The notes beneath the pieces are model-generated. The model did no database searches and had not been told where the DNA came from. It saw only the letters and a list, made by a program, of their open reading frames with translations. A program made the translations under genes and the position numbers. From Candidatus Heimdallarchaeota archaeon (GTDB lineage Archaea; Asgardarchaeota; Heimdallarchaeia; Heimdallarchaeales; Heimdallarchaeaceae): a stretch of 52,524 nucleotides of DNA. The DNA lies in assembly GCA_021399345.1 (NCBI GenBank), contig JAAFKI010000014.1:1-52524 (forward strand), read 5' to 3'. Below, piece by piece: positions 6,572-9,889 of the stretch (the stretch's first letter is position 1; each line of letters opens with the position of its first letter).

Positions 6572-6839
6572 ATCCTTGCCTCTGAATTATTATTGTTATA
6601 ATCCTTTTATTTGTTTCTCTGTCTATTAAGTTATTAGATTATACTTAATAAACTCTGTCAAAGTGTCCAATTAAAAAAGAAGATAATATCTAGAAAATAT
6701 TGTCCCTTTGTGTGAACAACATTGCATTTTTTCGATAAACAACCGTTTTAATGCTGAGGAGGGAAAACTTGTTCAATCTTACCTATGAAGAAAAAAAACT
6801 AGAACAACTTTCTTCAGCAAAGAAAACTAAAAAGAGAGT

Positions 6840-7177
6840 ATGCGAGTAAGAATAGGATTAGCTGCAGAATTAAAGGGAGTACCTTCAAGTACCTTGCGAA
6901 GATGGGAAAAAGAGGGAAAACTACTTCCAGTTGAAAGAACCATGAGAGGACACAGAAGATATAAACTAACCCAATTGGAAGGGAGAAAAGAGAACGGAGA
7001 AGGAGAAACAAAGGAAAGAATCGTACTGGGTTATGCGAGAGTGAGTGCAACTAAACAAAAGAAAGAACAGGAAAGGCAACAAGAGCAACTAAAGACCTTT
7101 GCTCAGCAGCAAGGAGGGAAGCTTAAGAAAGTGTATACCGATATTGCTTAAGGGACGAACGAGCAGAGAAAAGGTTT
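6840..7177 (+). pseudogene. tnpA: IS607 TnpA serine recombinase with a nonsense codon and loss of the C-terminal half
   Basis: MerR-like HTH (GVPSSTLRRWEKEGKL...GHRRY), catalytic YARVS; YTDIA-TAA-GTNEQRKGL where DIASG is expected; homology is lost after 7177. Confidence 0.88.
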
Positions 7178-7244
7178 ACACCACCACCACAATGAGAGTT
7201 TGTCGAGTTTAAATACCATTTTGGGGATTAGATACTGAGACACA

Positions 7245-9173
7245 TTGGTCACACAGACAACAAGCAAACTACAAACACTTCTTCCCACCGCATCAAAGGG
7301 AGTGATGAGAAGTTATCAAGTAGTGCTCAACTGTGCAGACCAATCCCAACGAGAAGAGATTAATCAGAGGATAAGAACACTAGAAGACCAACAGGAGCAA
7401 CTACTAACGCCACAAGTGATTACACAAGCGGTGGAACTCTACAGAACCAATCCGAAAGAAGGATTCTTCACTCGTCAACTCTGCAAAGCAGTAGGACAAA
7501 GTCCGAATATTGCAGAAAGTGCCTTTCATTGGCTGTATATAGCTATCAAAGGAAAAATAGACAAGGAGAAGAAAGTACAAGGTTTACTCAACTTTCTGCT
7601 AAAAAACCCTCTACAATTGATAGAATGGCTGATTTTTGGTCGTTCCCCTTACACTGAACGGAGTCTAGAGAACTTTTGGAGACTAAAGAGAAGATATATT
7701 ATCAATCTTCTTACTAGTACCAGAACACAAACCGATTCCTATTGGAGAAAAAAACATTACTCCAGCTATTTTGCTGACTTCCTAGAATTCAACACCCTCC
7801 TCCCAACATGTTCGCAATCTGAAGTACTTCAAGCTCTAGATGATACGCTGTTTTATCAACAGCACGAGTTTTCCCTTATCCCACAACTGACCAAGAATCA
7901 ACAAGCGTTTCTGAAGAAACTCAAGCTCTTAAAGAAAGAACAACAGATAGTTGTCCCTTTTCTCACCTCATGGATAAATAGTCCTCAAGATTCTCGATGG
8001 AAAAGTCTCAAAGATCTCGCAGAACAACTAGCAGCAATAATAGGTAAACCTTCCCGAAAACTCTTTTCAGCCGTTAGGCAGATAATCGTTTTCACACTCT
8101 TTGATCAGTACATGCAGAGTGTCCCTCAGTTAGTCAAGGTGCTACCTATAGCTAATGTTGTTCCCCTACCATTTAAACGAAAAAAGAAAGGAAGATTACC
8201 AATAAAATTGTTAATGAAGAAAAACTATGTTATCACCCGCCAAGGGAATGCACAAGAATTGACTGACCAGATTAAGAAGCAAGGAAGGATTGAACTCGGT
8301 TTTCCAAGTAAAGGAAAGCAGAAATTAACTGCTCAAGTTCATTTTCCACTGAAGGTAGTAGAATATATCAGAAATGGTGCCAGCATCAAAGTGTTCCAAG
8401 TGAGCAGTGGACAAGCGCCAAGTTATAAACCTCGGGTGGATGTGGTACTCGAAGGAGCGCATGCTTGTTTCCATTCAGCTAAACTTCTTCACCGCTATCT
8501 TGCAACGATTCCTGCAAAGAAATCGTCTATCCTAGGACTAGATATCAACCGCTTAGGACAATACATGATAGTGTTTAACATCCCTGTCTCTCTCCCTCCA
8601 GATTTACTAAACTTAGCAGAGCAATATGATCATCTCAGTACAAAAGTTATTGATGAACTCAACCGAGGGTTCCTCCGTAAACGAAAAGAGTATGATTCCC
8701 GAGGTAGTTGCAAACTTAAATCTGAGCTCAATCGTGTCTATACTCGTCGTCATCGCCTTCTTTGCGAAATCACTCGTCGTCTTCCCCATTTTCTCGCAGC
8801 TGTTCTGGTGAAAAAACAGACAAAAGTACTCAAGATTGAACGTTTAACTGCTGATCCCACTGGCACTAAAGGTGCCTTAGCTAAAGCTATTTACACCATG
8901 CCTGACAGTTTGTTCATTTACAAAAAAGCTGTGTGGTTAGCTTCTTTGGAATTAGGTTATGATGTCCAGTTAGAGACAGTTCCTCCTTATCACACCAGTA
9001 CCGTTCATTACCGGTGTGGGGGTATTCTTGCTCGTCAAAAAGGTCAATATGATGTTGCTCCATGCAAGAAGTGTGGTCAACAGGTCAATACACATAGTAA
9101 TGCCGCTCAGAATATCGCTTCCCTCAAAGGTATCTTTCTTCCTCCCGATTCCTTCCCCTCACCGCACGTGTAG
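7245..9173 (+). CDS. tnpB: Large TnpB-like RNA-guided RuvC protein (start may be ATG 7305 rather than TTG 7245)
   Basis: RuvC-I ILGLDIN (D433), RuvC-II LKIERL (E532), PPYHTS, Zn finger HYRC...CKKC, RuvC-III NTHSNAAQNI. Confidence 0.85.
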   Translation: MVTQTTSKLQTLLPTASKGVMRSYQVVLNCADQSQREEINQRIRTLEDQQEQLLTPQVITQAVELYRTNPKEGFFTRQLCKAVGQSPNIAESAFHWLYIAIKGKIDKEKKVQGLLNFLLKNPLQLIEWLIFGRSPYTERSLENFWRLKRRYIINLLTSTRTQTDSYWRKKHYSSYFADFLEFNTLLPTCSQSEVLQALDDTLFYQQHEFSLIPQLTKNQQAFLKKLKLLKKEQQIVVPFLTSWINSPQDSRWKSLKDLAEQLAAIIGKPSRKLFSAVRQIIVFTLFDQYMQSVPQLVKVLPIANVVPLPFKRKKKGRLPIKLLMKKNYVITRQGNAQELTDQIKKQGRIELGFPSKGKQKLTAQVHFPLKVVEYIRNGASIKVFQVSSGQAPSYKPRVDVVLEGAHACFHSAKLLHRYLATIPAKKSSILGLDINRLGQYMIVFNIPVSLPPDLLNLAEQYDHLSTKVIDELNRGFLRKRKEYDSRGSCKLKSELNRVYTRRHRLLCEITRRLPHFLAAVLVKKQTKVLKIERLTADPTGTKGALAKAIYTMPDSLFIYKKAVWLASLELGYDVQLETVPPYHTSTVHYRCGGILARQKGQYDVAPCKKCGQQVNTHSNAAQNIASLKGIFLPPDSFPSPHV

Positions 9174-9236
9174 GGGACCCACTCAAACGACGGTTAAACG
9201 CCTTCTGGCAAGTTTAACCAAGTTTCATAACGTGCG
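9154..9236 (+). ncRNA. Predicted TnpB omega-RNA scaffold core at the element right end (5' boundary probably further upstream)
   Basis: Stem TCCCCT 9154-9159 / AGGGGA 9172-9177; hairpin GGTTAAAC-GCC-TTCT-GGC-AA-GTTTAACC 9192-9219; CGCACGT 9163-9169 complementary to ACGTGCG 9230-9236. Confidence 0.7.
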
Positions 9237-9238
9237 TT

Positions 9239-9889
9239 TTACTGCTTTTTAGCTTCTAGTATTGCTTTTACTCGTTTTAATCTCGAAAAAGTTTCTCTCT
9301 CTTGTTCTTCAAGAGTACTTGCAATGAATTTTGCTGTTGCAAGTAATTTTGGAATTAAAATATAGTTCAGAGCATTAACTCGTCTCTTAGTTTTATTAAT
9401 CTCAACAGCTAGTTTTTCAAGTAAAGTCATCTTCTCGGCAATAACCATCAGTGTTTTCAATGACTTGCGAAAATAAACTATTGACCTATCTAGTTGTGCA
9501 CTCGAACTAGTTAGACCATAAAACACATCTTCTCCTTCCTTCTGAATCTCATTAACAATAAACCTAGGTGATCTAACACCCATGATACTAACAGTTTGTG
9601 GAGTAATTTCTAAAACAGCAGGTGCATATTGAGCAAGATCTCTAATTTTGTCTGGACCTACAATCATCTCAGCTTTAGCAAGAGATTGATACGCAATCCT
9701 TAGTTCTTCTTCTACTTGTTTTCTTGCTTCTCTTACTTCATCTTTGATGGCATATAATTCAATAACTAGTGCATCCATCTTCTCCTTAAGAAGATCATGT
9801 CCTTTTTGAGCAAGCTTGATTCGAGACCTTGTATTAAGAAGCTCCATTCTTGTTGCACTAATAGTACCAAATTCTGGTGTTGCCATCAA
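9239..9889 (-). CDS. atpD: A/V-type ATP synthase subunit D
   Basis: TRMELL, GHDLLKEKMDAL, SIMGVRSP, EINKTKRRVNALNYILIP, EEQERETFSRLK. Confidence 0.97.
   Translation of the reverse strand: MMATPEFGTISATRMELLNTRSRIKLAQKGHDLLKEKMDALVIELYAIKDEVREARKQVEEELRIAYQSLAKAEMIVGPDKIRDLAQYAPAVLEITPQTVSIMGVRSPRFIVNEIQKEGEDVFYGLTSSSAQLDRSIVYFRKSLKTLMVIAEKMTLLEKLAVEINKTKRRVNALNYILIPKLLATAKFIASTLEEQERETFSRLKRVKAILEAKKQ

Follow-up and report, generated by a model that had tools for sequence, protein, structure and literature searches.

A probable guide-RNA scaffold with a pseudoknot at the right terminus of an IS607-type element in a Heimdallarchaeota archaeon

The stretch flagged in the first-pass annotation of a contig from a Heimdall (Asgard) archaeon is very probably a conserved, pseudoknotted guide-RNA scaffold, located at the right end of an IS607-type element. 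All positions refer to the window, that is the whole stretch of 52,524 nucleotides that was analysed. The guide RNA (omega/reRNA) of a TnpB, encoded by an IS607-family transposon, very probably has its conserved core at positions 9153-9237. The first-pass annotation had read this region as the scaffold end of a TnpB-type guide RNA, and the structure, the covariation and the position of the element end bear this out. The features of the element and its flanks are listed in Table 1.

Table 1. Coordinates of the element, its genes, its predicted RNA and the adjacent host features in the window.
Feature	Position	Strand	Description
ACCGT target motif (TAM-like)	6742..6746	+	host DNA, 5′ flank
IS607-family element	6747..9237	+	2491 bp, without target-site duplication
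Left-end subterminal repeat	6765..6783	+	reverse complement resembles TGGCAAGTTTAACCAAGTTT of the right end
Truncated tnpA	6840..7151	+	MerR HTH and first 40 aa of the serine resolvase domain
TATA-box-like motif TTTAAATA	7208..7215	+	copy-to-copy homology starts there (4 own-genome copies aligned)
tnpB-like gene	7245..9173	+	642 aa, or 622 aa if started from ATG 7305; RuvC D-E-H
Hairpin 1, 6 bp	9154..9177	+	TCCCCT 9154-9159 / AGGGGA 9172-9177; spans the tnpB stop codon
5′ pseudoknot strand CGCACGT	9163..9169	+	in the loop of hairpin 1
Long hairpin 2	9185..9225	+	AAAC/GTTT 9185-9188/9222-9225, 8 bp and 3 bp
3′ pseudoknot strand ACGTGCG	9230..9236	+	exact reverse complement of 9163-9169, 7 bp
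Conserved terminal T	9237..9237	+	last base of the element; nearly all copies end ...GCGT, unrelated flanks beyond
Predicted guide	9238..9257	+	flank-derived; length taken as ~16-20 nt; antisense to the end of atpD (last codons and stop)
A/V-type ATP synthase subunit D gene (atpD)	9239..9889	-	216 aa; Pfam ATP-synt_D 7e-54; stop 9239-9241

The scaffold is an H-type pseudoknot, which comprises stem 1, a 3-nt loop, stem 2 and a linker of 1-2 nt, and whose long third loop holds hairpin 2. Within hairpin 2, the 8-bp stem is formed by GGTTAAAC (9192-9199) and GTTTAACC (9212-9219), the 3-bp stem by GCC (9200-9202) and GGC (9207-9209), and an AA bulge is present at 9210-9211. Both hairpins, the segment in the loop of hairpin 1 and ACGTGCG had been placed exactly by the first-pass annotation. 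Among 200 shuffled sequences, one folded as well as the right-end stretch (MFE z-score -3.16). RNAalifold could not detect consistent helices upstream of 9153 in 57 aligned tnpB 3′ ends, therefore the conserved core is limited to 84-85 nt (9153-9237). Conservation rises at 9153 from 0.66 to 0.91, third codon positions included, and drops to 0.30 beyond 9237. The Rfam scan of positions 8700-9400, with E-values up to 10, revealed no relevant match, RAGATH-18 included.

Covariation across homologous right ends, proposed as a check in the first-pass annotation, was analysed with a covariance model built from ten copies of the archaeon's own genome. The model encoded hairpin 1, hairpin 2 and its AAAC/GTTT extension, and did not encode the pseudoknot. 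The search revealed 66 matches in 78 related loci, nearly all of them at tnpB 3′ ends, with a few extra or weak ones elsewhere. In the alignment of these 66 copies the 7-bp pseudoknot predicted from the single sequence was recovered, with 96.5% of cells paired and compensatory double changes in six of its seven pairs (CG to UA or AU, GC to AU, AU to UA, CG to UA, GC to AU, and UA to CG). Hairpin 2 also covaries, with double changes in eight of the eleven pairs of the main stem and in one of the four extension pairs. Hairpin 1 is 98.2% paired, and four of its pairs never vary. For the whole structure, 92.9% of cells were paired versus 21-44% with slid partners, and none of 500 shuffles came up to the observed values.

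Binding sites for TnpA are to be expected at the ends of IS607 elements, and the module could owe its conservation to the duplex DNA alone, being the recombination site of the right end for TnpA without any role as RNA. Local alignments of the reverse-complemented left end with the right end of six elements revealed an imperfect inverted repeat, TGGCAAGnTTnnnnAAGTTT, common to the left end (6765-6783) and the right end (9205-9225), at similar distances from the termini. The repeat overlaps the 3′ arm of hairpin 2, and TnpA probably binds to it within the RNA gene; since part of this arm matches the left-end inverted repeat, the right-end DNA probably doubles as a TnpA site. Part of the primary-sequence conservation of the right end may thus serve TnpA binding instead of the RNA. 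However, binding of duplex DNA predicts no compensatory changes between positions 60-70 nt apart, as found in the pseudoknot, and the conserved block, which overlaps the end of the ORF, has its start precisely at hairpin 1. A role as DNA only is very unlikely, and a dual role as DNA site and RNA is likely.

The structure spans the tnpB stop codon, and it could also be a cis-acting 3′ element of the tnpB mRNA, related to stability, termination or stop-codon control, and not a scaffold. The C-terminal peptide of TnpB, FPSxHxRG, is conserved and tracks the RNA stems, by which it looks dictated, and the last four residues of the protein are disordered in the structural model. Nevertheless, gene-less mini elements retain the module without any ORF, and the module always abuts the transposon end and unrelated flanks, like guide scaffolds, so that an mRNA element is very improbable. 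The presence of the module in ORF-less elements also led to the rejection of a pseudoknot for stop-codon readthrough or frameshifting. These elements keep hairpin 1 as well, and this hairpin is therefore conserved beyond coding constraint.

The module of the guide-RNA scaffold is located at the 3′ ends of genes for TnpB-like proteins of 620-650 aa, or at those of gene-less IS607 mini elements of ~350 nt, such as L013:1234-1585 (G000:C16) and L014 ~1231-1585 (G000:C41), with relatives in L120-L128. Mini elements consist of four parts: the left end, a motif of 27 nt that contains a TATA and hardly varies (TTTTTCTACGAGTTTATATATGAAAGTAC), a structured domain of ~146 nt, in which 11 out of 29 predicted pairs covary (nine copies), and the 84-nt scaffold. 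The left-end motif of the mini elements is absent from the window in that form; the left end of the window's element is a diverged version of it. A covariance model of the 5′ domain (R2) matched neither the element of the window nor any of 33 other sources. At L062:2584-2725 this domain (110.6 bits) is located directly upstream of a full-length tnpB. A gene-less relative of 352 nt splits an MBL-fold gene, whose orthologue in another genome is uninterrupted, with an in-frame join and the same kind of junction, and represents an empty site.

The archaeon's own genome harbours four full tnpB genes and twelve copies of the right-end module, and related Heimdallarchaeota genomes harbour 2-27 module copies each. 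The lineage was found in only one Heimdallarchaeota family among the 151 genomes of the phylum that were sampled: the module was present in ten out of thirteen sampled genomes of this family and in none of 137 other sampled genomes of the phylum. The TnpB family is small, with 157 representatives (E <= 1e-3) among 1.84 billion, and the homologues are named Heimdallarchaeota, with a few labelled as Thorarchaeota or Promethearchaeati. In a distant subfamily with 39-42% protein identity (L083:4919-4950, L087:4865-4895, and L094:1744-1775), the 3′ pseudoknot strand is followed by ~18 further conserved nt (CGCATRGCYKCTYTGCT) before the flanks diverge, therefore the right end or the scaffold of this subfamily is organised differently. 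At L089:638-774, a scaffold match on the plus strand (691-774) and one on the minus strand (638-715) overlap with their tails, which suggests the insertion of an element at, or into, the end of a second one.

Empty sites for the element were found in five genomes of the same genus (L108-L112). Because window position 6746 is joined directly to 9238 in them, the element corresponds to 6747-9237 and lacks a target duplication; judged from this copy by itself, the junction could fall anywhere inside the shared CGTTTTA. The empty sites read ...AAACA[A/G]C[C/T/G]GT, followed by TTTACTGCTTTTTAGCTTC... The insertion without target-site duplication took place at a short matching motif, as is typical of IS607, and both junctions end in GT. 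Homology well past 9236, named in the first-pass annotation as grounds to abandon its reading, was not observed: in related genomes it ends at T9237 in ~55 of the 66 matches, with unrelated flanks beyond, and the twelve right-end copies of the own genome all end in ACGTGCG followed by T and are divergent afterwards. The scaffold end originally placed at 9236 holds in that homology stops there, and has to be moved by one base, as T9237 is conserved and belongs to the element.

Since T9237 is part of the element end, the predicted guide starts at 9238 and not at 9237. In the empty sites the guide sequence, identical or near-identical, follows A[A/G]C[C/T/G]GT. In front of the left end, the window copy and thirteen further elements read AC[C/T]GT (ACYGT), whereas right ends read TGCGT or TGTGT. 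Judged by these sequences, ACYGT is a candidate TAM without counterpart in the occupied site, and the junction pattern also agrees with recombination of the IS607 type, at a dinucleotide common to both sites (GT), in which the scaffold takes in the fixed last nucleotide. Similar to known omega/reRNAs, the module is located on the tnpB strand, overlaps the 3′ end of the ORF and stops at the right end of the transposon. Its conserved scaffold directly precedes a copy-specific guide derived from the flank, its pseudoknot connects a stem-loop with the nucleotides adjacent to the guide, and the target motif of the left flank is missing from the right end. Two runs of T, TTTT (9237-9240) and TTTTT (9246-9250), are present inside the predicted guide. 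If they are archaeal termination signals, the guide of this copy could be only ~9-13 nt long.

The guide covers the stop codon and the last codons of the convergent atpD, as the first-pass annotation had described. That annotation also took the RNA for a cis-antisense transcript to atpD, and as a function this found no support. If transcribed through 9257, the RNA would offer 19 nt of complementarity to atpD, over its stop and the five codons before it. However, the insertion point is 1 nt beyond the stop of atpD and relatives lack the element there, so that the arrangement with atpD is not conserved in the five genomes of the same genus, and dozens of other aligned copies adjoin unrelated DNA and not atpD. 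The overlap is moreover short, and the runs of T could stop archaeal transcription early. The insertion is recent and other copies abut unrelated DNA, therefore the overlap with atpD is regarded as incidental, of the kind that any omega-RNA guide copied from its flank has with the neighbouring DNA, and a regulation of atpD by the guide RNA in cis is extremely unlikely. With a dead TnpA, an intact D-E-H TnpB with its scaffold, and a guide matching the 3′ end of atpD, the copy could owe its retention not to selfish homing but to an action on atpD expression, by RNA-guided binding or by antisense modulation, and this is highly unlikely as well.

The tnpA gene of the window encodes a 103-aa remnant, with Pfam matches to MerR (5.2e-12) and to Resolvase (4.4e-6, over 40 positions only). 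Intact TnpA proteins of 196-200 aa, which are serine recombinases with a MerR HTH, are encoded at the same position upstream of tnpB in five related loci (L021, L042, L043, L047, and L051). The TTTAAATA motif is possibly the tnpB promoter. The stop codon of tnpB is TAG (9171-9173). The TnpB-like ORF possesses a Cas12f1-like_TNB domain (Pfam), and the family profile matches Cas12f and TnpB chains of the PDB. The AF2 model (pLDDT 90.4, pTM 0.80) matched Cas12f, ISFba1 TnpB (8iaz), ISDra2 TnpB (8h1j), and Fanzor2 in the search with Foldseek.

Residues D413, E512, and H597 (622-aa numbering) are invariant in 36 out of 36 sequences, down to 21% identity. H597 (His617 in the 642-aa form; window 9093-9095) fills the position of the canonical RuvC-III Asp, and the motif reads NTHxNAAxNI versus the canonical NADxNAAxNI. 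A zinc finger of the H/C3 type (H568/C571/C587/C590) was also found, inside which Asp583 is nearly invariant. The protein thus belongs to the TnpB/Cas12 fold, lacks the D-E-D triad because of the invariant His597, and is a rearranged RuvC variant of this fold. As Asp is replaced by His in the whole family, its nuclease activity is putative.

We infer transcription, processing, TnpB binding, cleavage and guide length of this RNA along the following lines. The guide RNA would be the 3′ part of the tnpB transcript of the plus strand, possibly started from the TATA-like TTTAAATA. It would fold into stem 1 (9154-9159/9172-9177) and the pseudoknot (9163-9169/9230-9236), with the hairpin of 9185-9225 in the third loop. 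The scaffold would end at T9237, and transcription running into the flank would supply ~16-20 nt from 9238 as guide. TnpB loaded with this RNA would recognise the empty allele, ACYGT followed by TTTACTGCTTTTTAGC..., and cut it; the cut would favour re-copying of the element, that is homing. The occupied site would be spared, because its right end reads TGCGT instead of ACYGT. Four RNA-labelled libraries contained contigs of related elements only, possibly from DNA carry-over, and two contigs of relatives (X19 and X20) cover the module to 9237 and then differ from the window. These contigs carry no strand, end or expression information, and are therefore not counted as transcript support.

For an Asgard-specific lineage with an unusually large TnpB and a His in the RuvC-III site, the analysis provides a covariation-backed structure model, exact ends, a candidate TAM (ACYGT) and empty target sites that occur naturally. 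On this basis it could be tested directly whether TnpBs of the D-E-H type act as RNA-guided nucleases, with a scaffold core as compact as 84 nt. No new mechanism is revealed, and the idea of an antisense RNA to atpD contributes nothing further.

In the reRNA of IS607 TnpB, a stem-loop forms a pseudoknot with the nucleotides next to the guide, and in ISXfa1 the first nucleotide of the flank, which is fixed, becomes part of the scaffold (10.1101/2023.08.09.552727). Similar to IS607 TnpB systems (ISXfa1 reRNA, 10.1101/2023.08.09.552727; ISFba1, PDB 8iaz), the element of the window belongs to a lineage with a serine-recombinase TnpA upstream of tnpB. As in these systems, its predicted guide RNA reaches from within the 3′ end of tnpB up to the end of the transposon, its guide-adjacent pseudoknot forms with a stem-loop, the fixed last nucleotide of the junction belongs to the scaffold, and the target motif of the left flank differs from the right-end sequence, without target duplication. 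Unlike in those systems, the protein has ~620-650 aa versus ~400, with a large helical N-terminal half, and His in place of Asp in RuvC-III. The conserved core of 84 nt compares with a scaffold of 144 nt in ISXfa1, characterised scaffolds being longer, and the target motif is ACYGT versus GGG in the IS607 comparison system.

Similar to the omega-RNA of ISDra2 TnpB (IS200/IS605; PDB 8h1j), the RNA consists of a scaffold and a flank-derived guide, with a guide-adjacent pseudoknot; the TAM, a candidate one here, is located 5′ of the left end, and the protein core matches structurally. ISDra2 differs in its Y1 transposase, single-strand transposition, TTGAT TAM, and canonical D-E-D site. PMC10691335 describes TnpB branches with His for Asp in RuvC-III, separately archaea-restricted rearranged branches, and also serine-recombinase-associated branches with rearranged sites. 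The conserved His at the Asp position is shared with the RuvC-III-rearranged branches; our lineage could not be assigned to any of the branches named there, and no pseudoknot model for it was found in the text of that paper. An IS607 TnpB omega/reRNA with a guide-adjacent pseudoknot is a known kind of RNA, of which the scaffold of the window is an ordinary example. The lineage that carries it is large in protein size, Asgard-restricted and RuvC-III-rearranged, with a compact scaffold core and a new candidate TAM.
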